Notes: generated from the letters alone by a model not told the origin. DNA of 64,000 bases from a virus (IMGVR_UViG_3300032896_000001:32001-96000), one strand, 5' to 3'; positions 11,308 through 55,499 are shown, numbered from the stretch's first letter. Made by a program: numbers and translations.

Positions 11308-12201
11308 CTAGGGCAGGTCGGGCTCCTGGCTGTCGTCCCACGGGCCGAATTCCTCCGGCGGGAACATGATCTCCGCGACGTCGGCCGGGGTCATCCCGAG
11401 GTCGCGGGCGACCTTCTTGACGGGCGACGGGTGACCTTCGGGGACCTCGTTCCAGGCGTCCCAGACGTCCTTGAACATCTGCTTCGTGCGAATGAAGGCG
11501 GCCTCTTCCGCGTCCTCGGCCGTTGTGGCGTCGTCGGGGACCGCGAACCGGGCGGCCTCGCGCTCCACGTCCGGGACGTCCTCGGCGGACTCGAGGACGA
11601 GCTCGGCGGCGCGCGTGAGCCGGTTGGCGATCAGGAGCGCCTCCTCGGGCGACAGCATCGCGTACGCCTGCTGGCGGTCGTCCCCGTCGATTCCAAGCCC
11701 GACCATGCCGGGGGTCATCCCGAGGTCGCGGGCGACCTTCTTGACGGGCGACGGGTGACCTTCGGGGACCTCGTTCCAGGCGTCCCAGACGTCCTTGAAC
11801 ATCTGCTTCGTGCGAATGAAGGCGGCCTCTTCCGCGTCCTCGGCCGTTGTGGCGTCGTCGGGGACCGCGAACCGGGCGGCCTCGCGCTCCACGTCCGGGA
11901 CGTCCTCGGCGGACTCGAGGACGAGCTCGGCGGCGCGCGTGAGCCGGTTGGCGATCAGGAGCGCCTCCTCGGGCGACAGCATCGCGTACGCCTGCTGGCG
12001 GTCGTCCCCGTCGATTCCAAGCCCGACCATGCCGGGGTCGTGGCCGGGCGCGCCGCAGTCGTCGCATTCGAAGGCGCCCTCGGGGGCGAAGACGTGCTCG
12101 ACGGCGATGCGGTCTCCGCCGCAGTCCCCGAAGACGACTCCGATCGTGCGGGTGCGCATCGGGATGCCCTTGCTGGCGGCTTCGGGTTCGCTCTCGCTCA
12201 C
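11308..12201 (-). CDS. Hypothetical protein with internal 108-aa duplication
   Basis: Duplicated MVGLGID...DLGMTP. Confidence 0.7.
   Translation of the reverse strand: MSESEPEAASKGIPMRTRTIGVVFGDCGGDRIAVEHVFAPEGAFECDDCGAPGHDPGMVGLGIDGDDRQQAYAMLSPEEALLIANRLTRAAELVLESAEDVPDVEREAARFAVPDDATTAEDAEEAAFIRTKQMFKDVWDAWNEVPEGHPSPVKKVARDLGMTPGMVGLGIDGDDRQQAYAMLSPEEALLIANRLTRAAELVLESAEDVPDVEREAARFAVPDDATTAEDAEEAAFIRTKQMFKDVWDAWNEVPEGHPSPVKKVARDLGMTPADVAEIMFPPEEFGPWDDSQEPDLP
11387..12037. repeat. Exact tandem duplication, period 324 bp
   Basis: 11387-11713 matches 11711-12037. Confidence 0.95.
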
Positions 12202-13202: not shown

Positions 13203-13862
13203 ATGCCGAACTCAGTGCTCGTGACCGGCGGCAACAACGGCCCCCTCGCGACGGAGAACATCAGCACCCCGGCGACGTTCAACGCCGAGATCACCGCCCT
13301 CGGCGGCATCAACACGCAGCAGCTCCCCGCCGGGTACCTCGGCCAGTCGATCAGCTCCGACGTCCTGTCCGCCACGGCGGTGGTCCTGACGACCGCCTAC
13401 GGGTACCTCACCCGGGTCGTCGTCCCCGTCGCGGGCGTCACCTCCTACCTGGACGTGATCCTCACCGCGTACGGTTCGCCGACCGGGGCGATCTGGGGGC
13501 TCTACACCGGCTCCGGCGTCAACCCGGTCGCCTGGACGGCGGAGTCCCACGCGAGCATCACCGGCAACGGGCTCACGTCCGTCCCCTGGGTGACGCCGGC
13601 GAGCATCGCGGCGGGGACGTACTACGTGTACCAGTGCTACACGGCCACCACCCCGTCGATGCCGGGCGTCACCGCGACGTCCACCGGGTCCGCCGGGGCG
13701 GCGATCATGAACCCGAACTGCTCGCTGTCCGCCACGGTTCCCACCCTGAACTCGGCCGTCCTGACATCGGGCGCCCCGACGACGATCGGCTCGACGACCC
13801 AGCTCACCTGGGGCACCTCGTGGGCGTTCGCGGCGACCAAGCTGTGGTACGGGATCCGGTAA
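13203..13862 (+). CDS. Virion structural/decoration protein
   Basis: GGAGG RBS; Thr/Ser/Gly beta-rich. Confidence 0.65.
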   Translation: MPNSVLVTGGNNGPLATENISTPATFNAEITALGGINTQQLPAGYLGQSISSDVLSATAVVLTTAYGYLTRVVVPVAGVTSYLDVILTAYGSPTGAIWGLYTGSGVNPVAWTAESHASITGNGLTSVPWVTPASIAAGTYYVYQCYTATTPSMPGVTATSTGSAGAAIMNPNCSLSATVPTLNSAVLTSGAPTTIGSTTQLTWGTSWAFAATKLWYGIR

Positions 13863-19664: not shown

Positions 19665-22600
19665 GTGGCAGGCGCCGAGAGCTTTACCGTGCTTGCGATC
19701 CTCGAGGCCCGTGATGCGGCCAGCGAGATCTTCGCCAAGATCGACGAGTCTCTCGACAAGTTCGGCGAGACCGCGGCGAAGGCGGCGGAGACCGCCAGGG
19801 GCGCGGGCGACAGCATCGACGAGTCGCTGCTCCACACCGCCTCCGGCGCCGACGCCCTGGACCTCGCGACCGCCCGGGTGGTCGCGACCCAGGAGAAGGC
19901 GACGCGGACGGCGGAGGCGCAGGCCGATGCCGAGCGGGCGCTGCTGGAGGCGTACCGGGCCTCGCAAGGGGCGGCGGACGACGATGTCGCCTCGCAGTAC
20001 CGGCTCCTGGAGGCCCAGCAGCTGCTGACCGCCAAGTCGAAGGAGAACGCGGCGGCGCAGAAGGACCTGAGCGCCGCGCAGAAACTCCAGGCCGACACGG
20101 CCGAGGCGGCGGCCGCGAAGAACGACGAGGCGGCCGCCAGCACGACCGCCGTGAAGGACGCCAGCGAGGCCGGCGGGATCAGCCTCGGCACGATGGGGAA
20201 GGTCGCGGGCATCACCGCCCTGGGCCTCGGGGTCGCGGCGGCGGTCATGGTCAAGGCCGCCGGGAACTTCCAGTCCAGCACCACCCACCTGGTCACTGAC
20301 GCGGGCGAGTCCGCGTCGAAGCTCGCCATGGTGCAGGCCGGGATCCTGAACGTGTCGACGGCGACCGGCACCGCGGCCTCCGACGTCACGACCGCGATGT
20401 ACCACATCGAGTCCGGCGGGATGCACGCCCAGGAGGGGCTGAACGTCCTGAAGGTCGCCGCGGAGGGCGCGAAGGTCGGCAACGCGGACCTCGGCACCGT
20501 GTCCCAGACGCTCGTCGGCACCCTGAACGCCTACTACGGCAGCACGATGAACGCGGGCAACGCGACGCAGCGGTCCACGTCGATGATGAACGAGCTCATC
20601 GCGATCGTCGGGTCCGGCGACATGACGATGCAGCAGCTCGCCTCCTCCATCTCCTCTGTCGCGCCGATCGCGTCGAAGGCCGGCATCAGCCTCGCCCAGG
20701 TCGGCGGCGCGATCGCCACGATGACCAGCCAGAACATGTCCGCCAACCAGGCGACGCAGGATCTCGCGCACACCATCAGCGCCCTGCAGAACCCGTCGTC
20801 GATCCAGACGGCGGAGATGGCTCAGCTCGGCCTGAGCTCGACGAAGGTCAGCCAGAACCTCGGCAAGGAAGGGCTCACCGGGACCATCGCCACGCTGACC
20901 GGCGCGATCACATCGCACATGGGACCGGCCGGCACCGTCCTCATGAACGCCTTCAACCAGAGCAAGACCGCCTCGGCGGACGCGAACACGATGCTGTCGA
21001 AGCTGCCCGCCTCGATCCAGTCGGTCGCCAAGGGGTACCTCGACGGGACGGTCAGCTACAACACCTGGTACGCGGCGACGAAGAGCCTGCCGCTGGTGGC
21101 GCGGACGATGGCGGACCAGTTCGCGTCGACCGCCGGGAAGGCCCACGGGTTCAACAGCATCCTGGCCGCCGGGGGCCCCGCGGCGCAGACCTACAGCGCG
21201 GCGCTGTCGAAGATGATGGGCGGCCAGATGGGCCTCAACACGGCCCTGATGCTGTCCGGGAAGAACCAGGGGACTTTCGACAAGAACGCCGCGACCGCCG
21301 CGAGGGCCGCCGCCGCGGGGGGGTCCGCCGTCCAGAACTGGGCGGCGATCCAGGGGACGTTCAACCAGAAGGTCGACGTCGCGAAGACCGGCATCGAGAA
21401 CACCGGCATCGCGATCGGGACCGCCCTGCTGCCCGCCGTGACGTCGGTCCTGTCGGCGATCACCCGGGTCATCATCCCGATCGCGGAGTGGACCGCCAAG
21501 CACCGGACCCTCACCGAGGTCATCTTCGTCTCGGTGACCGCGATCGCCGCCGTGATCGCGGTCATCGCGATAGCGAAGAAGGCGTTCGACGCCGTGTCCG
21601 GCGCGGTGAAGACCGTGCAGGCCACCCTCAAGGCGCTCGGGATCATCTCCAAGGAGACCGCCGACACGCAGGCCGCCTCGGCCGAGTCCGCCGCGGCGGC
21701 GCAGGAGTCGTCGTCGGCGGAGGCCTCGGCGGCGATGACGGCGGACGCCGAGGAGGTCGCGGCCGCCAACGACGAGGCGGCCGCAGAGTCGTCGGCGTCC
21801 TGGCTGACGGCCGCGACCGAGCAGATCGCCACGGCCGCCGGGTGGGTGGCCGAGCAGGCGGTCAAGGTCGCCTCGGTCGTCGCGTCCAACGTGGCGGCCG
21901 CCGCGACGACCGCGGGGGCGTGGGTCGCTGCGGGGGCGCAGCAGGTCGCCGGGGCGGCCGTGTGGGTGGCGCAGACCGTCGCGAAGGTCGCCGTCATCGT
22001 CGCGAGCAACGTGGCCGGGGCGGCCGTCACCCTGGCGGCGTGGGTCGCGGCGAACGCCGCGATGCTGCTGGGGATCGCCCTGATCGTCGCCGCCGTCGTC
22101 GCGGCGGTCCTGTTGATCGTCAAGTACTGGAAGCAGATCTCGGACGCCGCCAAGGAGGCGTTCGATTTCGTGATCCAGATCGCCGAGACCGTATTCGACT
22201 GGGTGAAGGCGCACTGGCCGCTGCTGCTCGCGATCCTGCTCGGGCCGTTCGCCGTCGCGGCGCTGGAGATCGCCGCCCACTACAAGCAGATCCTCAAGGC
22301 CGTGTCCGACGCGATCGACTGGGTGAAGTCCAACTGGCCGCGCCTGCTGGAAATTCTTACCGAGCCGATCGATTCTGCTGTCACGTGGATAGAACAGAGA
22401 TTCGATCAGATACGGTCCGGGGCGGCGTCCCTCGTCGGCGACCTGGTCCATTTCTTCACCACGCTTCCCTCTCGCATCATCGGCGCCCTCGGCAACGTCG
22501 GCTCGATGCTGTTCGGCGCCGGCGAGAAGATCATCCAGGGGCTCATCAACGGCATCGAGAACATGGTCGGCTCGGTGGGGTCCGCGATCGGGTCGATCGC

Positions 22601-22985
22601 CTCGACCATCAAGTCGTTCCTGCCGTTCTCCCCGGCCAAGCGCGGCCCGCTGTCCGGGGCGGGCGACCCGTCGAACTCCGGCAAGTCGATCGCGAAGAAG
22701 CTCGCGCAGGGGATCACCGCCGGGAAGGGCGAGGTCGCCGCGGCCGCGCACGCGCTCGCCGGGTCGGTGACGACCGGGACGTCCGGGGGCATGGGCGGGC
22801 TCGCGCTCAGCGCCGCCGGCGGCGCGGGCGCGGCGGCCGCGGGCGCGGGGGGCGTGAACCTCACCATCGACCTGCGCGGGGCGTCGATCATGAGCGACAG
22901 CGACGTCAACAACCTGGTGCGCAAGCTCGGGCCGGCCGTTGTGAAGGCTCTGAACCAGGCCGGGATCAAGGTGAGGATGCCTTGA
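19665..22985 (+). CDS. Tape measure protein
   Basis: 1106 aa, Ala-rich helical, periodic W/F, LPFSPAKRGPLSG. Confidence 0.95.
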   Translation: MAGAESFTVLAILEARDAASEIFAKIDESLDKFGETAAKAAETARGAGDSIDESLLHTASGADALDLATARVVATQEKATRTAEAQADAERALLEAYRASQGAADDDVASQYRLLEAQQLLTAKSKENAAAQKDLSAAQKLQADTAEAAAAKNDEAAASTTAVKDASEAGGISLGTMGKVAGITALGLGVAAAVMVKAAGNFQSSTTHLVTDAGESASKLAMVQAGILNVSTATGTAASDVTTAMYHIESGGMHAQEGLNVLKVAAEGAKVGNADLGTVSQTLVGTLNAYYGSTMNAGNATQRSTSMMNELIAIVGSGDMTMQQLASSISSVAPIASKAGISLAQVGGAIATMTSQNMSANQATQDLAHTISALQNPSSIQTAEMAQLGLSSTKVSQNLGKEGLTGTIATLTGAITSHMGPAGTVLMNAFNQSKTASADANTMLSKLPASIQSVAKGYLDGTVSYNTWYAATKSLPLVARTMADQFASTAGKAHGFNSILAAGGPAAQTYSAALSKMMGGQMGLNTALMLSGKNQGTFDKNAATAARAAAAGGSAVQNWAAIQGTFNQKVDVAKTGIENTGIAIGTALLPAVTSVLSAITRVIIPIAEWTAKHRTLTEVIFVSVTAIAAVIAVIAIAKKAFDAVSGAVKTVQATLKALGIISKETADTQAASAESAAAAQESSSAEASAAMTADAEEVAAANDEAAAESSASWLTAATEQIATAAGWVAEQAVKVASVVASNVAAAATTAGAWVAAGAQQVAGAAVWVAQTVAKVAVIVASNVAGAAVTLAAWVAANAAMLLGIALIVAAVVAAVLLIVKYWKQISDAAKEAFDFVIQIAETVFDWVKAHWPLLLAILLGPFAVAALEIAAHYKQILKAVSDAIDWVKSNWPRLLEILTEPIDSAVTWIEQRFDQIRSGAASLVGDLVHFFTTLPSRIIGALGNVGSMLFGAGEKIIQGLINGIENMVGSVGSAIGSIASTIKSFLPFSPAKRGPLSGAGDPSNSGKSIAKKLAQGITAGKGEVAAAAHALAGSVTTGTSGGMGGLALSAAGGAGAAAAGAGGVNLTIDLRGASIMSDSDVNNLVRKLGPAVVKALNQAGIKVRMP

Positions 22986-29377: not shown

Positions 29378-29511
29378 GCGACACCGAGGTCCGGGCCGTC
29401 ATCGGGGAGCTCGAGCAGCTCATGGAGGCGGTGCGCGGCAACGTCGCCGCCCTCCAGGCCATCCTCACCGACACGCCGGAGGTCACTGGTGACCAGCCCG
29501 CCCCAGCCTGA
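29374..29511 (+). CDS. 45-aa helical protein
   Basis: GTGA overlap, high GC3. Confidence 0.5.
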   Translation: MSDTEVRAVIGELEQLMEAVRGNVAALQAILTDTPEVTGDQPAPA

Positions 29512-30043
29512 CCCGGACAGCGCGATCGGGACCGCGCAGACGCTCGCCGCCGCCCTCGACGGCATGGCGGAACGCCTCGCCGAGGTCAACGCGAGCAGCG
29601 AGACCCGCGACGCGCGCCTGACGAAGTACGGGCGGGCGAACCGGCATCGCATCTGGGTGACGTACGCGCTCCTCGCCGTCGACGTGGCGCTCACGATCAT
29701 CGTCGCGTTCCTCGCCGTGCAGGCCGGGAACGCGTCGAGCCGGGCCGAGTCCGCGACCGCGCGGGCCGCCGCCGCGACCGCGGCCGAGGCCGCCCTCCAC
29801 ACCGCGCAGGTCTCCGGGTGCGTCGCGGGCAACCAGGAGCGGTCCGGGGAGCTGGCCTTGTGGACCTACCTGTTCAAGGCGTCCAAGCCGGCGTCCAAGG
29901 CGCAGGCGCAGGCCATCGCGAAGTTCATGGGCCTCGTCGAGTCGACGTTCGCCCCCCGGGATTGCAGTGCTCTGTACTCGCTGACACCACCTAAGCAGCG
30001 GGGATTACAGTCCGGTCGGCATTCCATGCCTTCCCTATCTTGA
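29489..30043 (+). CDS. Membrane protein in lysis cassette
   Basis: One TM helix, coiled coil, two Cys. Confidence 0.65.
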   Translation: MTSPPQPDPDSAIGTAQTLAAALDGMAERLAEVNASSETRDARLTKYGRANRHRIWVTYALLAVDVALTIIVAFLAVQAGNASSRAESATARAAAATAAEAALHTAQVSGCVAGNQERSGELALWTYLFKASKPASKAQAQAIAKFMGLVESTFAPRDCSALYSLTPPKQRGLQSGRHSMPSLS

Positions 30044-41019: not shown

Positions 41020-41358
41020 GTGCAGACGCTAACCCAGTCGGTGCTGAGCACCCAGTACGTGCAGACGCTGATCGCCGTCACCAGCGTCAGCGGCGACTAC
41101 GACCCGACCACCGACACGATCGCGTGGGCGTTCACCAGCGCGAACGCCTACCCGGCCGTCTCCCCGTCCGCCTGGACCGACGGCGAGTGGATCACCTACC
41201 CCGGAGACCAGTGGTGGGCTCAGATCCTCGTCGGGCCGGCCGGGGCCGTCACCCTCGCCACCGGGACATGGCAGGCATGGGTAAAGATCAGCGATTCACC
41301 CGAGGTCCCGGTATTGCAGCCGTTCCTGCTCCAGATCGTGTTATGGCGGAATTCGTGA
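41020..41358 (+). CDS. Small structural protein
   Basis: GGAGG RBS; ILVGP..WVKISDSPEVPV. Confidence 0.75.
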   Translation: MQTLTQSVLSTQYVQTLIAVTSVSGDYDPTTDTIAWAFTSANAYPAVSPSAWTDGEWITYPGDQWWAQILVGPAGAVTLATGTWQAWVKISDSPEVPVLQPFLLQIVLWRNS

Positions 41359-42198: not shown

Positions 42199-42271
42199 CC
42201 TCGCAAACTCTCAGATCCAAAGCCCCCGGCACTTACCTGCCGGGGGCTTTCCCATTGCCCAGGAGGCCTCC

Positions 42272-43165
42272 TTGACCACTCCCGCCCGCGTCCCCGGCAA
42301 GCGGGGCAGGCTCCCCGCCAAGCGCCTGGCTATGGGCTACCTGCACTCGTACCTCAAGGCCCCGCTTCCCGCCCCGGCCTACCCGGTCGACGTCCGCGCG
42401 GGCATCCCGGACGGAAATTGGCAGATGCTCGGCAACGGACCCGACCCGACGTGCACGGTCGCGCCCGAGGGCGTCGGCGACTGCACGTTCGCCGGCCGCC
42501 AGCACTACCGCATGGCGAAGGCCGCCCACTACGGCGAGACGGAGACCTGGGAGACCAGCAACGCGCTCGTCGAGGAATACCTCGCCTACGACGACGGCCA
42601 GGACGGGGGCGCAGTAATCGCGGACCTTCTCCTGTCCTGGTACAAGGCGGGCACGATCCTTGCGTTCGCCCCGGTCGACCACACCGACCCGGCGGCGGTC
42701 GACTCGGCGATGCAGGAGTTCAAGGGCGTCTACGCCGGCGTCAACCTCACCGACGACGCCGACCAGCTGTTCAGCGACGGCCAGCCGTGGACGACCGCGA
42801 ACGGCGAGCAGCCCGACCCGAACGACGGGCACTGCATCGTCAAGGTCTACGCCGACGGCAAGGACTCCGACGGGTGGGTTACGTGGGGCGCCTACCAGCA
42901 GTCCACCAGCGGGTGGACGAAGGCGTGCCTCACCGAGGCGTGGGCGATCATCACCAGCGAGGATGAGGCGGCCAAGGTCGACATGACCTCCCTCCTCGCC
43001 GACATCGAGGCACTCGGCGGAACCGAGCCCGTGACGCCGACTCCGGCCCCCTCGCCCGCGCCTGTTCCCGGGCCTGACCACAAGAGCCTCCTTGCCGAGC
43101 TCGCAGCCATCGTCCGGGAGGACGCCGCCAAAGCGGTCGCCTGGCTCCACTCCAAGGGCCTCTAA
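42272..43165 (+). CDS. Papain-like cysteine peptidase (possible second lysin)
   Basis: MLGN..GDCTFA..GHCI..VTWG; AGGAGG RBS. Confidence 0.7.
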   Translation: MTTPARVPGKRGRLPAKRLAMGYLHSYLKAPLPAPAYPVDVRAGIPDGNWQMLGNGPDPTCTVAPEGVGDCTFAGRQHYRMAKAAHYGETETWETSNALVEEYLAYDDGQDGGAVIADLLLSWYKAGTILAFAPVDHTDPAAVDSAMQEFKGVYAGVNLTDDADQLFSDGQPWTTANGEQPDPNDGHCIVKVYADGKDSDGWVTWGAYQQSTSGWTKACLTEAWAIITSEDEAAKVDMTSLLADIEALGGTEPVTPTPAPSPAPVPGPDHKSLLAELAAIVREDAAKAVAWLHSKGL

Positions 43166-47092: not shown

Positions 47093-47416
47093 TCACTCGC
47101 TGCGGGTCAGCGGAATCCCGGCCAGCAGCGAGCGGACCTCGGTCTCCCGGTAACGCCGGTGCCCTCCGAGGGTGCGGATCGACGTCAGCTTCCCGGCCCT
47201 CGCCCACCTGGTGACCGTATTCGGGTCGACACGGAACATCGTGGCCACCTCGGCCGGGGTCAGCAGCGCCTCGGCCTCCGGGACGCGGCGGCCCGCGTGC
47301 GAGGGCGCCGGGGGCTCGTCGAGCAGGTGCGGGGCCTGCCTCCGGATCGTGTCCAGCAGCCTCTCCGGTGTCGTCCTGCCGACGAGCTCAATCGTCGTCT
47401 TGTTCTGCGCGCTCAA
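47093..47416 (-). CDS. bldC: BldC-family MerR-like developmental regulator with N-terminal extension
   Basis: LLTPAEVATMFRVDPNTVTRWARAGKLTSIRTLGGHRRYRETEVRSLLAGIP. Confidence 0.9.
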   Translation of the reverse strand: MSAQNKTTIELVGRTTPERLLDTIRRQAPHLLDEPPAPSHAGRRVPEAEALLTPAEVATMFRVDPNTVTRWARAGKLTSIRTLGGHRRYRETEVRSLLAGIPLTRSE

Positions 47417-47481
47417 TTGCGTGCCCTTCCCTTCCTTAAGACTTCCCGTCCGGAGCCGCCGGGCGGACCGGTGAACTTCTG

Positions 47482-47592
47482 TCACCCGAGATGGCGGATC
47501 GCCAGCCGGCAGAGCATGAACAGGCCCGCGGCGGCCCACACGACGGCGATCGGGCCGCCGACGATGAGGACCGGCACGAGCGCGATGGGCAT
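47482..47592 (-). CDS. Small membrane peptide
   Basis: Single hydrophobic segment. Confidence 0.4.
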   Translation of the reverse strand: MPIALVPVLIVGGPIAVVWAAAGLFMLCRLAIRHLG

Positions 47593-47624
47593 GCGCTCGA
47601 GCCGCGGCGCGCGGTGCCGCCCGC

Positions 47625-47984
47625 TCACGACGGCGCTCCCTGCGGGACGGGGCGGAGGGCCGGCCCCGGCTTCGGCATGCTCCGGAGCATCGCGGCGAGC
47701 CTCGCCCGCGCCTTGTGGCCGAGCGCCTTCAGCGTCCGCCTGCGCTTCCGCCGCCGCCAGTTCTTCCACGAGATCCACGCCCAGCCCGCCGCCCCTGCGG
47801 CGTATATCGCGGAGGGGAGCCAGTGCCCGCCCGCCGCGTCAACGGCCGCCGCCAGGCCGAGCGTGACTGCGGCGGCAGCAGCCCACATCGCCGCCCTGCC
47901 GTACCGCCCGCGGCCGACGGCATTGCCGCACAGCCACGCGCTGACGACGCTCAGCAGCCCGATGGCGAAAGCCGGAAGACTCAC
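47625..47984 (-). CDS. Membrane protein with basic tail
   Basis: Three hydrophobic helices, WRRRKRRR. Confidence 0.65.
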   Translation of the reverse strand: MSLPAFAIGLLSVVSAWLCGNAVGRGRYGRAAMWAAAAAVTLGLAAAVDAAGGHWLPSAIYAAGAAGWAWISWKNWRRRKRRRTLKALGHKARARLAAMLRSMPKPGPALRPVPQGAPS

Positions 47985-48193
47985 CCCCGCCCCCTCGCCG
48001 CCGCCCGGAACGCGGGGCACGCCGCCCCGCCGCAGCGCCCGCAGTCCGACCCCGGGCGGTAATGCTCGTGGCACTCGCGGGCGCAGCCGCAGGCGCACGC
48101 CCGGGCCAGGGCGCGCAGCCGCCGCCGGGCCGGCCGCGAGACCCGCCTGGGGGCCGGCCGGGCGCCCGCCGCGCCGCCGCCGATCTTGAGCAT
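47981..48193 (-). CDS. Small CxCG Zn-binding protein
   Basis: CACGCARECHEHYRPGSDCGRC; AAGGAGG RBS. Confidence 0.65.
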   Translation of the reverse strand: MLKIGGGAAGARPAPRRVSRPARRRLRALARACACGCARECHEHYRPGSDCGRCGGAACPAFRAAARGRG

Positions 48194-48272
48194 GCAGTCC
48201 TCCTTGGTGGCGCCCCCCGCGCCGTCCGGTTCTCGCGGCCGGGCGGCGCGGGGGGCTGTCGTGCTTGCCGGG

Positions 48273-49265
48273 TCAGCTGGCGGCGGCGCAGGCCCCGGTG
48301 ATGTCCCCGGTGTTGGCGTTGAACGCCTGCACCATCGTTTCCTGCACCTTCGGCGAGGTGCAGTTCTCGCTGGTCGCAAGGTAGGTGAACGAGTAGTCAG
48401 GCTGGCTCACCGCGCCCGCCCCGGCGGACGACGCGATCTTCGTGCCGGCCGGGAAGAACGGCGCGTACCAGGCGGCGTCGCCGCTGCCCGACGCGTACGA
48501 GTCGTTCAGGTTGTTCACCGTCGCGGGCACCCCGGAGGAGCTGAGGGAACCCGAGTCGGCGTAGAACTCGAAATCAAACGAGCCGTCGAGCGTCCCCTGC
48601 ACGATGCCGTCGATGGCCTTCCCGCCGAGGGGGGAGTTCGCCCCCGCGAGGGTCTGGAAGGTCCCGTCCATCGACGCGGTGCCCGTGTAGTAGTAGCAGG
48701 TCGCGTTGCCGGCGGGGGCGTTGGAGCACTCCGACAGGTCGGCGGCGGCGTGCCGGGTGATGCTGACGTCGAACGCGAAGTCGTCCAGCGCCCAGATCCC
48801 GCCGTTCGCCAGCGTGAGCGGCTCGGTCCCGCTCGCGCTGTCCGGGTCGTTGCTCACCGAGATGTCGGCGGACGCGGTGACCGGGGCGGCGTTCGCCCCC
48901 GGGGCCCCCGCGGGACCCGCAGGGCCCGCCGGGCCGGTCGCCCCGGTCGCCCCGGTCGCGCCCTTCGGCCCCGTCGCCCCGGTCGCGCCCGCGGCTCCCC
49001 TGGGGCCGGTCACGCCCCAGTAGACGAGGAACGAGCCGGACGGGCAGGTGGTCCCGGACGTGTTCGACTCGAAGACGCGCTCCAGCACCCGGCCGGAGCC
49101 GGTCACGCAGCCGTGCAGGGTCCCCGCGGGGATGGAGACGGCGGCGGCGCTCGCGCCGAGCGCCCCGGTCGCGGCCATCGCGATGCCGCCCCCGGCCAGC
49201 GCGAGGGCGACGGCGCCCCCGCCGACGGCGATCCGCAACGGCATCCGCCTAACAGACTTCAACAT
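48273..49265 (-). CDS. Secreted collagen-repeat protein
   Basis: Signal peptide, Gly-X-Y repeats, Cys pairs; GAGGAG RBS. Confidence 0.75.
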   Translation of the reverse strand: MLKSVRRMPLRIAVGGGAVALALAGGGIAMAATGALGASAAAVSIPAGTLHGCVTGSGRVLERVFESNTSGTTCPSGSFLVYWGVTGPRGAAGATGATGPKGATGATGATGPAGPAGPAGAPGANAAPVTASADISVSNDPDSASGTEPLTLANGGIWALDDFAFDVSITRHAAADLSECSNAPAGNATCYYYTGTASMDGTFQTLAGANSPLGGKAIDGIVQGTLDGSFDFEFYADSGSLSSSGVPATVNNLNDSYASGSGDAAWYAPFFPAGTKIASSAGAGAVSQPDYSFTYLATSENCTSPKVQETMVQAFNANTGDITGACAAAS

Positions 49266-49648
49266 GGAACTACTCCTCGGTTTAACGGACCTGCCCGGGT
49301 TATCCCGGGCAGGGGCCTGTGGGGCGGCGAGCCGCCGCTGCGGGGGCCGCGCGCGGACCCGGGGCGGCCGCGCGGCCGCCACCCGGGGTCCGGGGACCTC
49401 CCCTATCTCGTCCTCCGCGACCCTGAGCGCCTCCCGCTCGCCGGCGCCGAGCAGGCCGAACTGGTCCCCCGCGGCCGGCCTCGCGTGCGCGGGGGGCCCT
49501 GCCGCCGCCGGCGCCGCCTGCGCGGCCGCCATCCCCGCGAGCACCTCGAGGGCGCTGAGCTGATCGCCCGTCGCCGGGCCGGTGCACGGGCGCCCCCCTA
49601 GCCGCCAGTCGTTGGGCAGGGTGTCGTCGTTAGGGATGGTGGGGGTGC

Positions 49649-49942
49649 TCACGCGGCGCTCCGCCTTTTCTGCTGCTTGGACCTCGAGGCCGCGGTCGCG
49701 ACGGTGCGCGGCGCGGCCGGCTTGTTCAGTCCCCTGGCTATCTCCGCGAGGTTCGCGGGGGAGAACACGATCGACCTGCCGACCCGCGTGCACGGGAACA
49801 GGCCGCTGCGGGCCCTCTTGAGCAGCCAGTAGCCGGTCGTCTTCCCCGAGGGGTCGAGAATGCCCGCCGCCTCGGCGGGCGTGTAGTGAACGGGGGCGCC
49901 GACTGCGGCGAGCTCCTCCGGGGACGGCCGTGCCGTCGTCAT
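49649..49942 (-). CDS. Excisionase-like HTH
   Basis: YTPAEAAGIL..RVGRSIVFS; next to the switch. Confidence 0.7.
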   Translation of the reverse strand: MTTARPSPEELAAVGAPVHYTPAEAAGILDPSGKTTGYWLLKRARSGLFPCTRVGRSIVFSPANLAEIARGLNKPAAPRTVATAASRSKQQKRRSAA

Positions 49943-50193
49943 TGCTCCTCCTGCTCTGCCTGCTCTGCCTGCTCGAGTCGAGCGAGCAGGTCCGCGTACC
50001 GGGCTGCGCGCTCGCCGTGCGGCATCTTCCGTCCCGCCTCCCAGTCGGCCACCGTCGGCTGGGTCACGCCCACCGCCTCGGCCACCTCGGCCTGCGACAG
50101 GCGGGATCGCTTCCTGATCTCCCGCACCCGCCCGCTGGCCACGTCCGCGCGCAGGCGCGCCAGCGTCACGGCGCTGTCCGCCGATATCGTCAT
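49939..50193 (-). CDS. Cro-like XRE HTH
   Basis: LSQAEVAEAVGVTQPTVADWEAG. Confidence 0.85.
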   Translation of the reverse strand: MTISADSAVTLARLRADVASGRVREIRKRSRLSQAEVAEAVGVTQPTVADWEAGRKMPHGERAARYADLLARLEQAEQAEQEEQ

Positions 50194-50275
50194 AGGATTC
50201 CTTCCGACCACACATGGGGATACTAATCCTATTTCAGGATGCGGCGCGACTACATAGCCATGTAATGTCTGATCC
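50194..50275. promoter_or_regulatory. Divergent lysis/lysogeny switch region
   Basis: AT-rich; TAATGT 7 nt before the repressor ATG; palindrome TACAT-N4-ATGTA. Confidence 0.65.
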
Positions 50276-50785
50276 ATGTCATCGGATGACGAGCGACTCC
50301 GCGGCGAGCGGAAGGCGTTCGGCGAGAACCTCCGCGCCGTCCGCGAGCGCCGCGGCACGGGCCAGCGGGAACTCGCCGCGCGCATGGCCGCGCAGGGCTA
50401 CCCGTGGCACCAGAACACGGTCACCAGGGTCGAGGCGGGCGACCGGTCCGTCTCCTTCTACGAGGCGATGGCCCTCGCGGCGCTCCTCGGCGTGACGACG
50501 GACCGGTTCACCTGGTCGGCCCCGGAGGCGGCCGAGCGGGAGATGGCCGCCGCCGCCGCCGCGCGGCTTCGCGGGGCGTGGCGCGAGCTCGCCCTCGCGA
50601 AGGCGCGGCTCGACGACGCCCGCGACGCCGCGGCGCGCACCGCCGAGCGCGGCGCGAAGTCGGAGTTTCCCCGCGTCGCCGAGGCGGCGCGCGGGATCGC
50701 CGAGGACATCGAGGACTGCACGGCCGAGCTCGCGCTCGCCGAGGCGGACAGGATCAGGGAGCGCGACGAGAAAGGCGGCGGCTGA
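50276..50785 (+). CDS. Immunity repressor (XRE HTH)
   Basis: FGENLRAVR..QRELA..WHQNTVTRVEAG; divergent from cro, coupled to int. Confidence 0.8.
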   Translation: MSSDDERLRGERKAFGENLRAVRERRGTGQRELAARMAAQGYPWHQNTVTRVEAGDRSVSFYEAMALAALLGVTTDRFTWSAPEAAEREMAAAAAARLRGAWRELALAKARLDDARDAAARTAERGAKSEFPRVAEAARGIAEDIEDCTAELALAEADRIRERDEKGGG

Positions 50786-52470
50786 TGGCGTACGCGGAGA
50801 GAGTGCCGTCCCCGAGGGGCGACTACTGGCGGGGCCGGTACAGGGATGCGGGCGGGGGCTGGGTGACCGTCCGCGACGAGAACGGCGATGTCATCCGGTT
50901 CGCGCTCAAGCAGGACGCGAAGAACGCCGCCGACGACCGCCAGTCCGACGTCCGCAACGGCCGGGTGGCCAAGCCGGCGTCCGAGATGACCTTCGCCGAC
51001 TGGGCCGAGGAATGGTACGGGGGGCTGAACCTCGCCTGGTCGACGATGGCGGGGCGCAGGCGCCACCTAGACGATCACCTCCTCAAGGAGTTCGGCGCGG
51101 TGCGCCTGGCCGACATCACCGAGGCGATGATCGGCGCCTGGGAGATGAAAGAGCGCAAGGAGGGCAAGAAGCCCGCCAGCATCGCGACATGGCGCGGCAC
51201 CCTTCACACCTGCCTCGAGGACGCGGTGCCCGAGATCATCAGCCAGAACCCGGCGCGCCGGAAGGGGAACCGCGGCAAGCGGGCGGACAAGGGCAAGGGC
51301 CGCGGGCCGGAGAAGCCGTTCACCGACGCCCTCGGCGTGCTCCTTATATCCGAGCGGATGGCGATCCTCACCGGCCAGGACCAGGAGTTCGTGATGAGCC
51401 AGGCGTCGTTCTGGGGGGCACTCCGCCTAGGCGAGCTCGTCGGCCTCGAGCGGCGGTACCTCCGGACGGAGGGGCTGCGGGTGGAGTGGCAGCTGCACCA
51501 GCTCGACCTCCAGCAGGCGAGGGAGGGCGAGGCCGACGTCGCGGCGACGATGCGGGCGGAGGCGCCCGGGGGCCTCCTGCGCTGCCCGCCGAAGGACAAC
51601 TCGTTCGGCGACGTGATCCTCGCCCCGTTCATGACGGCGATGCTCGACGGGTTCGCGGCGTCCCGCCCGGCCCGCTCGTGCCCGTGCCACGGTCACGCCT
51701 ACCTGTTCCGGGGGTTCGGCGTCCCGTCCGGCGGCCGGGCGCCCGACGGCTCCGTGACGCTGGCCGACCTGGCCGCGATCGCGGGCGTGTCGCCGACCAC
51801 GGCGCGCAAGGCGCTGACGGGCGCGGCCGGGATATCGGCGGTCGTGCGGAAGCGCGTCGAGGAGACCGCGGCCGCGACCGGCTTCGCGCGCCGCCGCGCG
51901 GCGGCCGACCCGGCGTGGCACTGGCGCCGCAGCGCGTTCGAGGCGCTGGTGTCCGCTGCGGCGACCGGCGAGCTCCCCAAGGCCGGCCGGGGGCTGCCGA
52001 AGCGCCCCGTGCCGCTCGGCGGCGAGTGGCCGGGGACGCGGCTGAGGGGGCCGGGCGCGATCAGCCGGGCGACGCTGCGCTGGGAGCCGGTGGCGCCGGG
52101 CCTGACCCCGCACCTGATGGCGCGCCACTCGATGCGCACGCTGATGGAGGAGAAGCGGATCCCGCACATCATGTCCGAGACCCACCTGCGGCACGACATC
52201 CCCGGGGTGTCGGGGGCCTACCGCCACGTGACCGACAACATGAGGGAGGAGCTCGCCGCGATGATGACCGCGGAGCACGAGAGGGCCCTCGACGCCCGGC
52301 TCGCGATGTCGCCCCGCTCCCCCGTGGCGGTCCTCGACGCGATGCTTCTCGAGCGCTCGGAGGCCCGGAAAATCCGGGCCGTCTCCAGAATCTCACCAGA
52401 ACATGACAATGCGGTAGTTTCCCTCCCGACCGGTACGCGGCCTGACCTGCGGAGGGATGGTCGTGCGTGA
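50785..52470 (+). CDS. int: Tyrosine integrase with inserted LacI-type HTH
   Basis: R (LRLGEL), K (PKD), H..RH, H, Y (GAYRH); VTLADLAAIAGVSPTT. Confidence 0.9.
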   Translation: MAYAERVPSPRGDYWRGRYRDAGGGWVTVRDENGDVIRFALKQDAKNAADDRQSDVRNGRVAKPASEMTFADWAEEWYGGLNLAWSTMAGRRRHLDDHLLKEFGAVRLADITEAMIGAWEMKERKEGKKPASIATWRGTLHTCLEDAVPEIISQNPARRKGNRGKRADKGKGRGPEKPFTDALGVLLISERMAILTGQDQEFVMSQASFWGALRLGELVGLERRYLRTEGLRVEWQLHQLDLQQAREGEADVAATMRAEAPGGLLRCPPKDNSFGDVILAPFMTAMLDGFAASRPARSCPCHGHAYLFRGFGVPSGGRAPDGSVTLADLAAIAGVSPTTARKALTGAAGISAVVRKRVEETAAATGFARRRAAADPAWHWRRSAFEALVSAAATGELPKAGRGLPKRPVPLGGEWPGTRLRGPGAISRATLRWEPVAPGLTPHLMARHSMRTLMEEKRIPHIMSETHLRHDIPGVSGAYRHVTDNMREELAAMMTAEHERALDARLAMSPRSPVAVLDAMLLERSEARKIRAVSRISPEHDNAVVSLPTGTRPDLRRDGRA

Positions 52471-52641
52471 GCTACCGAGCCCCTTCGCCAGTACAAGGGG
52501 GTCCGCGAAAAAATCTCGTGCAGTTGTCGCAGGTGACAACGCTGCGTGTTCGGCCGCCCAGGTAGCGGCTGCGCGTTCCGGGGCGTTCCCGTGCGCTCCG
52601 GGGTTCTCCGGGGCGATGTCGTCCCCAGATCGTCCCCAGAA
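52381..52641. other. Putative attP region
   Basis: Paired arm-type CCAGA repeats at 52381-52401 and 52621-52641; 10-bp phased repeats 52571-52620. Confidence 0.6.
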
Positions 52642-52656
52642 TTGGAGCGCACGCGC

Positions 52657-53091
52657 GTGACGCGAGTGACGACGAGCCGCGAGGTGCCCGCGTGCTGGAC
52701 ATGGCCGGCCCCGACGGCGGAGGCCCTGGAGAAGGTCCGCCGCCGGATGGTCGCCGACGCCGAGCAGGACGGCGTCGGCTGGCGCCCCAGCCCCCAGGAC
52801 GTCCGCTGGGAACTGATGGATCAGTGGAAGCGCGGCCGGTGCGCGATATGCGGCCGGCGCACAGGCAGGCTGATCGAGGATCATGATCACGAAACCGGGC
52901 TGTTCCGGGGCTGGCTATGCCGGGCCTGCAACACCTGCGAAGGGTATGCAGGGGACCGCGAGCCCTTCGCCGCGTACCGTGAGCGGAGCCCGGCCATCAT
53001 CTTTAACCTCAAGTCGCAGTACTCCAACCTCTACGCCTGGGGGTCCTCGACGAACGTCACGCCTCCCGCATCTTCTCCGGGTCAGCGATGA
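52657..53091 (+). CDS. Endonuclease VII-like protein
   Basis: CAICG..EDHDHETGLFRGWLCRACN. Confidence 0.8.
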   Translation: MTRVTTSREVPACWTWPAPTAEALEKVRRRMVADAEQDGVGWRPSPQDVRWELMDQWKRGRCAICGRRTGRLIEDHDHETGLFRGWLCRACNTCEGYAGDREPFAAYRERSPAIIFNLKSQYSNLYAWGSSTNVTPPASSPGQR

Positions 53092-53320
53092 ACGACCCCC
53101 CGTACGTCGAGTACTCGGCGGTCCAGTAGATCTGGACGACATTGCGCCCGCGGTCGTCGGTCCACCAGGCGCGGACGTCGACCGGGTGCCACTGCTTGTC
53201 GCCGAAGAGGAACTCCCACCCGGTCTCGCTCTCGTCCCGGTGCCAGCCGGTGTCACGGCGGGTCGTGTCGCGGGACAGCGCCACCTCGAGGGCGGGGGAG
53301 TTCCTCGGGCTCGGCGGCAT
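53057..53320 (-). CDS. Hypothetical protein
   Basis: Trp-rich, 87 aa. Confidence 0.6.
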   Translation of the reverse strand: MPPSPRNSPALEVALSRDTTRRDTGWHRDESETGWEFLFGDKQWHPVDVRAWWTDDRGRNVVQIYWTAEYSTYGGSFIADPEKMREA

Positions 53321-53330
53321 GAGAGTAGGT

Positions 53331-53675
53331 CTACCCAGCTAATTGCCAGCCGGTGACAGGTAATTGCGGTGCTGACGCCCGGACGACGCGCCTGGCAAGG
53401 GCGGCAAGCTGCGAGTCCCCGCGCCATGAGTCGTCACCCGGTTCCCACGGCTGCGTGTAGCCGCTGACCGGGGAGCCGGAGTGCGCGTGAACGCCGGGGC
53501 TGCAGATGTTGCGATCGGCCGGCACGCGCCAGCGGTCGCCCTGGTCGGTGTCCTCGTTGTGGCAGCACTCGATCAGGGGGCAGAGGCAGAGCAGGCCGAG
53601 GTGGCGGTCAACGCCTGTTGCGTCGCGGAACCGGCGGTTGTCGATCAGGTCCGACCAGCGATGATGCCCGCTCAC
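53331..53675 (-). CDS. Hypothetical protein
   Basis: GTGA overlap; two TTA codons in the last 10 codons. Confidence 0.55.
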   Translation of the reverse strand: MSGHHRWSDLIDNRRFRDATGVDRHLGLLCLCPLIECCHNEDTDQGDRWRVPADRNICSPGVHAHSGSPVSGYTQPWEPGDDSWRGDSQLAALARRVVRASAPQLPVTGWQLAG

Positions 53676-54106
53676 CGCTCGGACTCGTTCTGCTTGATGT
53701 GGTGCGCGGCGGCGATCCACCAGGCGGCGTCGCGGTCACTGGCCGCAGACCGCTCGGCCTCGGTGCAGCAGGCGTCGTAGAGCGCGGCGACGGGCGGTTC
53801 CATGCCCTTGTAGCACGGCTTCTGCGGTCGGAGCCCCCGCTTCCTCGCGGCGAACAGGTGCCCGAGCTCGTACTCGGCGCGCAGCGGCTTCAGGTCGTCG
53901 AGGGTCCTCCGCAGGAGCGGCACGTCGGCGACCATGATCTCCTCGAAGTCGGCGGTCGCCCAGTGGAACAGGTCATTGCACTCGGCGAACAGCCGCGTCT
54001 CGCGGTTCGCGCCCGGGGTCATGTCGACTCGCCAGATGAGCGCGGCCTCGAAGTCCTCGGCCTCGGCGAAGAGGGCGAAGACCTCAGCGGCCTCGTACGG
54101 CGTCAT
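53672..54106 (-). CDS. Hypothetical protein (leaderless)
   Basis: CNDLFHWATAD..RPQ; TACGCT 6 nt before ATG. Confidence 0.75.
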   Translation of the reverse strand: MTPYEAAEVFALFAEAEDFEAALIWRVDMTPGANRETRLFAECNDLFHWATADFEEIMVADVPLLRRTLDDLKPLRAEYELGHLFAARKRGLRPQKPCYKGMEPPVAALYDACCTEAERSAASDRDAAWWIAAAHHIKQNESER

Positions 54107-54466
54107 GATCCGAGCGTAGCCCCGGAAAGCGCGGACCCGGCAGCCAAGGGGCCTGCCGGGTCCGGCACTGTCACGGGGCGCGGCGGCGGCTGGCCAGGTG
54201 CCGCCCGCGGCTTCAGGTCACCGCGCCCCGCTGCCCGGGACCTGGCCGCGCCGCGCAGTGGTGCGGCGCGCGGCGTTGTCCGGCGGTTCCCGGGCCGTTC
54301 TTTACGTAGCGCGGCGCCGGGCCAGAGTGATCCGGCCCGGCGCCGCTTCTCCATGGCGGGGAGGCAGGGAGCGAACTGTCTCAGCCGTCGCCGCTGGCCG
54401 GCTCGCCCTACGCCGGCGATCCCGTCCCTGTGCGCCATCCCCTTATTGGGAAGCCCGCAGGTGATC

Positions 54467-54784
54467 CTAGCCGACGCGCAGCCGCCCGCATTCGCGTGCC
54501 TCGAACATGACGGTGATCCCCTTGGCCTTCGCCTGCCGTCCGAAGCAGGCGGGGCACAAGATCCCGTGCAGCGACCCGTGGGCCTCCGCGTACAGGTCGT
54601 CGGGCGCTCTCCAGAGCGGGAACTTGCGCCCGCAGTCCTGGCAGTGCTCGCCTATCTCGAACAGCGGGTGGAGGACGAAGTCCGCCCACCACAGGCGCAG
54701 CAGCCCGGCGGGCGACGTCGGCTTGCGGCCGGTCCGGATCGCCCATCGCAGGCGGCCGAGCGCGCCGGGCTTGACCGCGGTCAC
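54467..54784 (-). CDS. Zn-finger protein
   Basis: CQDCG..ILCPACF. Confidence 0.65.
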   Translation of the reverse strand: MTAVKPGALGRLRWAIRTGRKPTSPAGLLRLWWADFVLHPLFEIGEHCQDCGRKFPLWRAPDDLYAEAHGSLHGILCPACFGRQAKAKGITVMFEARECGRLRVG

Positions 54785-54996
54785 CCGGCCGGCTGGCCGA
54801 ACCGGTCGAACTCCCCGTTCCTGACCCCGCCGATGAAGGCACGCATCTCGTCCGGCGTGAAGCGCAGGACCGGGCCCTGCGGATCCCGGCTGTTGCGGAC
54901 TCCGACGACGCTGCCGCCGAGGTCGGCCACCTCCACGCACGTGCCCGCCCCGGAGTCGCTCAGCGTGCTTTTCACCCACTCGGCCCCGCCGCTCAC
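54781..54996 (-). CDS. DUF397 family protein
   Basis: WVKSTLS..CVEVA..VGVRNSRDP.GPVLRFT. Confidence 0.9.
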   Translation of the reverse strand: MSGGAEWVKSTLSDSGAGTCVEVADLGGSVVGVRNSRDPQGPVLRFTPDEMRAFIGGVRNGEFDRFGQPAG

Positions 54997-55256
54997 CCCG
55001 CGCTCGCGAACCGGTCGAACTCGCCGAGACGGACGCCGCCGATGAACGCGTCCCACTCGGCGGGGGTGAAGGACAGCGTGCCGCCTTCGGGGTCCCTGCT
55101 GTTGCGGACGAGGATCGCGCCGGTTTCCAGGCCCGCCACCTCCACGCAGGCGCCGACGGCGACGCTCCGCGAGCTTTTGACCCACGCGACTTCGACGCAG
55201 TTTCCGTTGGCGAAGCTGAGAGAGCTCTTGATCCACTCCGGGCCCGACTGTTGCAT
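54993..55256 (-). CDS. DUF397 family protein with duplicated WxKSS..CVEVA motif
   Basis: WIKSSLSFANGNCVEVA WVKSSRS..CVEVA..VRNSRDP. Confidence 0.9.
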   Translation of the reverse strand: MQQSGPEWIKSSLSFANGNCVEVAWVKSSRSVAVGACVEVAGLETGAILVRNSRDPEGGTLSFTPAEWDAFIGGVRLGEFDRFASAG

Positions 55257-55499
55257 GACGCTGCCTCCGTTGTTCCGATTTGCCATCTTTGACTACTTAT
55301 TGTTCCCGAATCGTTTCCCTCTGTACAGGTCGCGGAGCCAGCGGGCGAGGCGCTTCACCGGAGCCACTGCTCCCATAGATCGGGCCTCCAGATGGTTGTC
55401 GGAGTCGGGTAGCCGGTCATGGTGGGCGCGCAGACGACCGTCACCGTGATCCCCGATGTGCGGGTCACGGATTCGGCGAGCGGCCGGCCCTCGTCCTGG

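Follow-up and report, generated by a model that had tools for sequence, protein, structure and literature searches.

A long-form BldC-family protein and a tandem DUF397 pair in a temperate actinophage, and the association of both families in uncultured phage genomes

Proteins of the BldC family form head-to-tail oligomers on AATTNNNN(C) direct repeats and control developmental genes. Cellular genes encoding DUF397 proteins (PF04149) are usually paired with a gene for a WhiJ-like XRE regulator, which is built of an HTH_31 and a C-terminal domain, and often with an AbaA-like gene, too. The closest described relative of the protein treated here is BldC of Streptomyces (SCO4091; S. coelicolor and S. 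venezuelae; PDB 6AMA and 6AMK; NCBIfam NF033787), a MerR-like winged helix-turn-helix (wHTH) protein without effector domain, which assembles head to tail into multimers on AT-rich direct repeats (PMC5859096) and delays entry into development, prolonging vegetative growth via developmental promoters (PMC6428758). BldB itself has been described as matching DUF397 poorly and as having an N-terminal extension; BldB paralogues hetero-oligomerise and affect WhiJ-controlled genes, and the proteins of the BldB family are not DNA-binding (PMC10294661). In Streptomyces, development is a layer of protection against phages: it limits their spread, mycelium that is mature or sporulating is resistant, and the early phase of infection is marked by a repression of developmental genes (PMC10117723). 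Host-type transcription regulators have been taken up by actinobacteriophages before, as described for WhiB and Lsr2 by Sharma et al. 2021 (PMC8612146), where BldC is not mentioned. Here, we describe a BldC-family gene and a tandem pair of DUF397 genes in bases 32001-96000 of the virus record IMGVR_UViG_3300032896_000001 (105,095 bp, linear, rated 100% complete in IMG/VR); this stretch of 64,000 nucleotides is called the window, and positions are those of the window unless the record is named. Our favoured reading, given tentatively and at a little under an even chance, is that captured host-type BldC and DUF397 regulators may be used by the phage to interfere with the developmental switch of its host.

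A preliminary description of this DNA had placed a BldC-like gene in the early arm, and this gene is indeed present. The open reading frame (ORF) 47093-47539 (-) matches HTH_17/MerR in Pfam, scores 101.1 bits with the NCBIfam model NF033787 (HTH_BldC; cut-off 77 bits) and matches the BldC chains of PDB 6AMA (E=6.5e-33) and 6AMK (E=9.5e-31). In the wHTH core, 48 of 52 residues are identical to S. coelicolor BldC (6AMA), and the identity amounts to ~83% over the 66 aligned native residues. Five of the six DNA-contact residues published for BldC (PMC5859096) are kept, which are R30 and K36 in the helix and H46, R47 and R48 in the wing, and the sixth, K26, is replaced by N (codon AAT). The best cellular matches, with 89% identity, are BldC proteins of Streptosporangiales (Nonomuraea, Microbispora, Streptosporangium), whereas those of Streptomyces reach 86-88%. 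Since the closest cellular BldC proteins come from Streptosporangiales, the host is, judged by these matches, a mycelial actinomycete and not necessarily Streptomyces, the genus in which the preliminary description had framed the locus.

The phage protein is larger than its cellular counterparts. The likely start is TTG 47416, which is preceded by a GGAAGGGAAGGG ribosome-binding site, so that the gene extends over 47093-47416 (-) and encodes 107 amino acids (aa), compared to 68 aa typical of BldC; it is thus not a stand-alone wHTH, as it carries an N-terminal module and a linker in addition. The module of ~35 aa is conserved in many metagenome homologues of 100-128 aa, and because this extra part is conserved among homologues the start at TTG 47416 is supported. 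In the AlphaFold (AF2) model a helix at residues 17-27 (predicted local distance difference test, pLDDT, ~80) is followed by a disordered linker at residues 36-49 with pLDDT below 50 and then by the wHTH. The long N-terminal form was considered as a phage-specific trait and rejected; it was found in only two other viral loci and in many short metagenome contigs. The BldC copies of viruses are 55-90% identical to the core of this phage's protein across very different phage backgrounds, and the invariant columns in an alignment of the seven best viral copies include R30, K36, R47 and R48. We count this as support for the view that the viral copies have been selected for BldC likeness.

The two DUF397 genes of the preliminary description were found as well. 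Gene 1 (54993-55286 (-), 97 aa) matches PF04149 in two stretches with E=3.4e-26 and 91.6 bits, and gene 2 (54781-54996 (-), 71 aa) matches it with E=1.6e-19 and 70.3 bits; both exceed the cut-off of 24 bits, both fall into phrog_10815 and both have the conserved motifs KSS.S, C.E, VR(N/D)S and a C-terminal GEFD in the alignment. The genes are tandem paralogues: the GTG with which gene 2 begins overlaps the stop codon of gene 1, the two are 73% identical at the DNA level, and gene 1 carries one additional copy of the N-terminal 'W.KSS.S..CVEVA' hairpin. A search of the whole record did not reveal DUF397 copies other than this pair. A protein identical to that of gene 2 (P0121) is encoded on three recorded contigs, the longest of which has 134,377 bp, and therefore the same or a near-identical phage is present in other assemblies. 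The pair is part of a long leftward operon of small genes without assigned function, with a weak ribbon-helix-helix candidate upstream. Directly downstream, in the same operon, a CxxC...CxxC protein of ~100 aa is predicted from the frame plot (54467-54772 (-)), for which searches of Pfam and PHROG did not give a match. The operon also contains a gene for a histidine triad (HIT) family protein (56279-56815).

Compared to the DUF397 proteins associated with BldB and WhiJ, the phage proteins match the family strongly and are, like many cellular ones, small and encoded in tandem, but an adjacent WhiJ-like XRE or AbaA-like gene is lacking and the hairpin of gene 1 is duplicated. Among the neighbours of the pair, neither an XRE nor an AbaA-like partner was found, and the nearest HTH_31 genes are those of the phage's lysogeny switch, 4.5 kb off. 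The same holds for other phages: an HTH_31 search of 25 DUF397-bearing viral records was without any hit in 14, and a long WhiJ-like XRE was present within ~1 kb in only five, whose DUF397 proteins are 47-53% identical to that of this phage; in this search, none of the records with a DUF397 at least 60% identical to this phage's had an adjacent long XRE. The complex prediction for gene 2 and the CI-like XRE regulator of the phage gave a score of 0.00, which is evidence neither way, and sequence relatives of DUF397 were not found in PDB. The phage proteins resemble generic members of DUF397 and are probably better called so than BldB orthologues; orthology was judged from the literature description of BldB and the match to the DUF397 consensus, not from the sequence of BldB. 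The BldB-family label given to the pair in the preliminary description is to be corrected in this sense.

The phage DUF397 proteins form a tight subfamily, as 26 of 28 compared sequences are 56-77% identical to the copy of this phage and come from otherwise unrelated contigs. One to three additional copies of the N-terminal hairpin, placed in front of the complete domain, recur among them, for example in G038, G051, G011 and G019. Such orphan, tandem copies would also suit a counter-defence decoy, by which partner-less DUF397 titrates or poisons Xre-DUF397 modules of the host that resemble toxin-antitoxin (TA) systems, with BldC being unrelated cargo of the same accessory region. Xre-DUF397 has been classed as a mobile TA-like module, and multi-copy DUF397 without HTH is known from conflict systems (Makarova 2009 and Kaur 2020; PMC2701414, PMC7159879); the tightness of the subfamily in unrelated contigs and its frequent hairpin repeats speak for this alternative, too. 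We regard it as unlikely, since DUF397 is not known to have a toxicity or defence role and the experimental literature favours developmental regulation (PMC10294661), and since it leaves the specific association with BldC unexplained, including that of an overlapping gene pair described below.

The co-occurrence of BldC and DUF397, a check proposed in the preliminary description, was determined in IMG/VR, where 139 contigs encode a close BldC relative, of which 80 were fetched. DUF397 was present somewhere in 32 of the 79 other BldC-bearing records (5/5, 21/50 and 6/24 by batch), some of which are related to each other. It was found in 21 of 41 BldC-bearing records with a completeness of at least 90% and in 7 of 15 with direct terminal repeats; therefore, host flanks cannot explain the co-occurrence. 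Thirteen long terminase-related contigs with a GC content of 57-70% served as controls. WhiB is carried by 8 of them and their GC is similar, showing that the controls are actinophages, and neither DUF397 nor BldC was found in any of the 13. The association of DUF397 with BldC had a Fisher p of 0.003 for all records and of 0.0002 for the 37 records that were also typed for WhiB. WhiB itself was not enriched with BldC (14/37 vs 8/13 in the controls). In the reverse direction, BldC was present in 8 of 29 DUF397-bearing records, a sample that was obtained with a narrowed alignment pattern, the first alignment being too diverse, and that covers close relatives only. Control sets were also sought via integrase, WhiB and tape-measure proteins, which yielded no more than 3 loci, 8 loci on short contigs and 1 locus, respectively; hence the terminase set was used.

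The two genes are also close to each other more often than in cells. DUF397 was found at most 10 kb from BldC in 16 of 80 viral but 3 of 80 cellular bldC loci (p=0.0025, 6-fold enrichment), and 12 of the 16 proximal viral DUF397 genes share the strand of BldC. All-against-all clustering of the neighbours revealed DUF397 as the second commonest companion of viral BldC, behind integrase. The tightest linkage was seen in L185 (IMGVR_UViG_3300043313_000502, 56 kb, complete, with direct terminal repeats), where a 74-aa BldC-like and a 65-aa DUF397 protein are encoded on the same strand at 5774-6192 by genes that overlap by 4 nt. L171 (IMGVR_UViG_3300049440_000308), which is related to this phage, encodes a protein of 133 aa in which two BldC-type wHTH domains follow each other in tandem (7514-7915), 1.3 kb from a DUF397 gene cluster. 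In sum, BldC is clearly associated with DUF397 in a non-random manner across uncultured actinophage genomes, as an association only.

An association of this kind could also arise if both were passengers without joint function, that is, often-captured host genes that collect in the lysogeny or early accessory part of large temperate phages infecting mycelial actinomycetes and are brought together by shared host range, lifestyle and common descent. One loosely related group accounts for a large share of the co-occurring loci, both genes usually lie in an accessory region near the integrase, and the co-occurrence declines over the three batches with the similarity of BldC to that of this phage. 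We consider this distinctly improbable, as WhiB, another captured host regulator, does not follow BldC, the controls are actinophages of similar GC and a BldC-like/DUF397 pair with overlapping genes exists; further, DUF397 is a rarity among cultured phages of Streptomyces, of which four distinct ones were matched. The only other cultured phage with DUF397 is one of Saccharomonospora. Among cultured phages, BldC with at least 60% identity was found in one unannotated faecal contig only; 220 weaker matches with at most 51% identity are generic MerR-like HTH proteins from Microbacterium, Brevibacterium, Mycobacterium, Gordonia and Arthrobacter phages, none of them from a Streptomyces phage.

How could a phage make use of the two proteins? 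If they interfere with host development, as we tentatively propose, the phage BldC would bind AT-rich direct repeats of developmental promoters or would co-polymerise there, head to tail, with BldC of the host, and its action would prolong the vegetative, phage-permissive state. The phage DUF397 would hetero-oligomerise with BldB paralogues of the host and thereby alter the expression of WhiJ-controlled genes. The easiest explanation for a viral BldC that is nearly identical to cellular BldC in many backgrounds is that it must behave like the protein of the host in order to function. The operons of both genes run leftwards and begin on the Cro-like side of the lysogeny switch or further out, which suggests early expression.

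Several observations weigh against this proposal. K26, a base-contacting residue, is nearly invariant in homologues, including that of the close relative L005, but is N in this phage; the exchange may weaken or alter DNA binding or may be a recent defect. The BldC and DUF397 loci are 7.4 kb apart and belong to different operons, with the integrase module between them. The cultured phages with DUF397 (Picard, Mojorita, Success, Darolandstone and PIS 136) do not encode a close BldC. The co-occurring records are not independent, with 17 of 33 in one loosely linked neighbourhood group and 7-14 groups in total, the controls are few (13 contigs), and none of the contigs analysed has an assigned host. 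Finally, viral BldC genes are often found near integrases (15 of 80 loci) and BldC is structurally Xis-like, so that a role within the phage would fit, too.

In such a phage-internal role the BldC-like protein would act on phage DNA, as a recombination directionality factor (RDF) or as a regulator of transcription or packaging, and DUF397 would modulate an HTH regulator of the phage; host development would not be the target. Phages do encode small monomeric wHTH proteins which bind direct repeats cooperatively, such as mycobacteriophage D29 Gp36 and Pukovnik Xis (PMC12266134), the former of which resembles BldC and regulates phage genes (PMC12266134, PMC5859096). These are related to BldC by fold only, whereas the present protein is a BldC at the sequence level. 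Many of its homologues are named 'excisionase family' in the source databases, integrase is the commonest neighbour of viral BldC, and the BldC gene of this phage is located 3.4 kb from the integrase gene in an operon headed by a Cro-like XRE. On the other hand, a separate Xis-like gene is present beside the switch, and an RDF would be expected to change together with the integrase and att sites that it serves, whereas the viral BldC proteins are 55-90% identical to the cellular one across very different phage backgrounds. We also scanned the whole 105-kb record for at least two NATTN4C sites phased by 9-11 bp and found none, with 0.8 expected, which argues weakly against targets on the phage DNA. 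BldC reads DNA shape loosely, and the negative array scan is thus weak as evidence. AATT occurs in the window at the expected frequency (30 vs 29). Three of these 30 sites cluster at 5443-5501, in a divergent intergenic region between leftward genes that end at 5415 and rightward late genes that start at 6172. Taken together, we hold a phage-internal role to be possible, albeit rather less than likely.

Beyond interference with host development by the two proteins, a BldC-type wHTH and DUF397 might form a functional pair in which DUF397 modulates BldC-type filaments, in analogy to the supposed modulation of WhiJ regulators by BldB paralogues; the pair would then be a portable module of phages of mycelial actinomycetes that keeps the host vegetative or re-times its development. 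We put this forward as a speculation with a small chance of being correct.

The third layer in the preliminary description consisted of in-frame TTA codons. Naive ORF calls gave 7 in-frame TTA in the ~29,200 codons of the 105-kb record. TTA 42233 was rejected as coding, as it lies in the loop of an intrinsic-terminator-like hairpin (42219-42250 (+), recognised from sequence context) upstream of the true TTG start at 42272, and so were TTA 50265 and 50226, which are located in the AT-rich divergent promoter region upstream of ATG 50193. Minus-strand TTA at 131-133 and 13860-13862 are instead TAA stops of plus-strand ORFs; the ORF 13203-13862 (+) has a G+C content at third codon positions (GC3) of 0.98, and its minus-strand reading is probably an antisense shadow ORF. 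The four real TTA codons (30005+, 41341+, 53363- and 53342-) are located 2-12 codons before the stops of three genes without known function, and the claim that TTA occurs only at gene ends is thus correct. By chance ~6% would be expected near stops, and it was seen in 3 of 3 genes; the pattern is real, though resting on three genes. In all of them the coding composition ends at the TTA, with a GC3 of 0.85-0.94 before and 0.50-0.60 from there to the stop: it falls from 0.94 to 0.50 in ORF 29489-30043 (TTA 30005-30007 (+), 12 codons before the stop), from 0.92 to 0.60 in ORF 41020-41358 (TTA 41341-41343 (+), 5 codons before the stop) and from 0.85 to 0.50 in ORF 53331-53669, which has two TTA (53363-53361 and 53342-53340 (-)) in its last 10 codons. 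Both of the latter are supplied by a GCAATTA-N14-GCAATTA direct repeat (53340-53367), ~20-45 nt upstream of the gene 53057-53320, which could be a promoter or operator element.

The position of these codons could reflect a bldA device, by which translation stalls or ends at the old stop when the UUA-reading tRNA is scarce and runs on into short C-terminal extensions when it is present. UUA has been proposed as a sensor of the host state for phage Hau3, another high-GC actinophage with rare TTA, where the codon in the terminase gene is suggested to read the bldA state of the host; there, however, the TTA codons stand at the head of inserts that break the frame of an essential gene (PMC10732093), whereas here they are found at probable former stop positions of three genes. 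The coincidence of all four real TTA with the end of coding composition, in 3 of 3 genes, would suit such a device. The orthologue of 41020-41358 in L005 ends with ...LLQIV, followed by TAG exactly at the TTA of this phage. For the 53331 gene an orthologue was not found in five related records, and for the 29489 gene there is only a weak one (29% identity) that does not reach the TTA-bearing tail. TTA is one mutation away from TAA or TGA. Among 723 confidently called genes from other high-GC viral loci, seven TTA were found in C-terminal halves, and three of these are within the last 15 codons, compared to 11% expected, with GC3 falling in the same direction behind them, and AGA, TCA and CAA, likewise one step from a stop, are enriched near gene ends as well. 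A TTA inside the functional coding part and conserved in orthologues, as in bldA-dependent genes, was not found. The simplest reading is that TTA has been purged from the gene bodies and that the terminal ones derive from lost TAA or TGA stops, behind which the frame continues for 2-12 codons of non-coding character, or from intergenic sequence that was recruited; a bldA device is very improbable. Of the three-layer bld link assumed in the preliminary description, the connection of BldC with DUF397 is thus strengthened by their association, and the TTA layer falls away.

The DNA belongs to a temperate tailed phage of ~105 kb that infects a mycelial actinomycete, and its late, lysogeny and early regions lie in the window. 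The window has a G+C content of ~70% throughout and lacks tRNA genes. Large terminase and portal are encoded in the record upstream of the window; the window itself has genes for a minor tail protein and for the tape measure (19665-22985), and further on come those for a GDSL esterase and a tail protein of depolymerase-like type. The contig combines genes of the virion with those of the lysis region and of lysogeny (integrase, Xis-like and two XRE); the record also carries a WhiB gene. A megablast search with 10-kb pieces of the window against 50,697 GenBank phage records did not reveal a match at the DNA level. A close relative is the IMG/VR contig L005, whose proteins, from those of the tail up to and past the integrase, are 85-97% identical. 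It was considered that the DUF397 pair lies outside of the phage, beyond the integrase; this was ruled out, because L005 has a DUF397, too, and further genes in common with this phage on either side of the integrase, and therefore the DUF397 locus belongs to the phage and is not a host flank.

The lysogeny switch is located at 49.6-52.5 kb. A small Cro-like XRE (49939-50193 (-), HTH_3 and HTH_31) starts with ATG 50193 behind a ribosome-binding site, with AT-rich DNA upstream, and heads the leftward early operon, in which it is followed by the Xis-like gene, membrane and collagen-like genes, BldC and a ParB-like gene. The Xis-like HTH gene (49649-49942 (-); phrog_1840 excisionase, E=8e-5), whose ATG overlaps the stop of the XRE gene, is a candidate for a separate excisionase distinct from BldC. 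The gene for the CI-like XRE (50276-50785 (+), 169 aa, HTH_31, phrog_3 repressor) precedes that for the integrase and is transcribed away from the early operon; it has orthologues in L005, L188, L006 and L076. The tyrosine integrase (50788-52470 (+); phrog_1 integrase, E=1e-24) has a 91% identical orthologue in L005/L186. Between the Xis-like gene and BldC, ORF 48273-49793 encodes collagen-like Gly-X-Y repeats behind an N-terminal membrane or signal segment.

Two repeats were found apart from these loci. An exact direct repeat of 327 bp with a period of 324 bp (11387-12037) is located inside ORF 11308-12201 (-) as an in-frame tandem duplication, which may be recent or an assembly artefact. A stretch of 540 bp is duplicated with 92% identity at a distance of 32.4 kb (909-1445 of the window and 475-1013 of the record), resulting in two paralogous copies of small minus-strand genes.

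Among the papers searched, none was found on phage-borne BldC orthologues or on a pairing of BldC with DUF397, and cultured phages almost lack both. That actinophages capture regulators of their hosts is already known, and the association of BldC with DUF397 appears to be a new lead; the two would lengthen the list of host regulators taken up by these phages, which includes WhiB and Lsr2. For the near-end TTA codons of high-GC phages, lost stop codons offer a simple and general explanation. Where a phage has a near-copy of the development-delaying BldC together with BldB-family members, these genes are natural candidates for a counter-measure of the virus to host development. The repeated pairing of BldC and DUF397 in phages suggests that both act in one shared pathway, which host genetics has not shown, and a functional pair, if true, would reveal an unrecognised link between bldC and bldB in the developmental network of Streptomyces.

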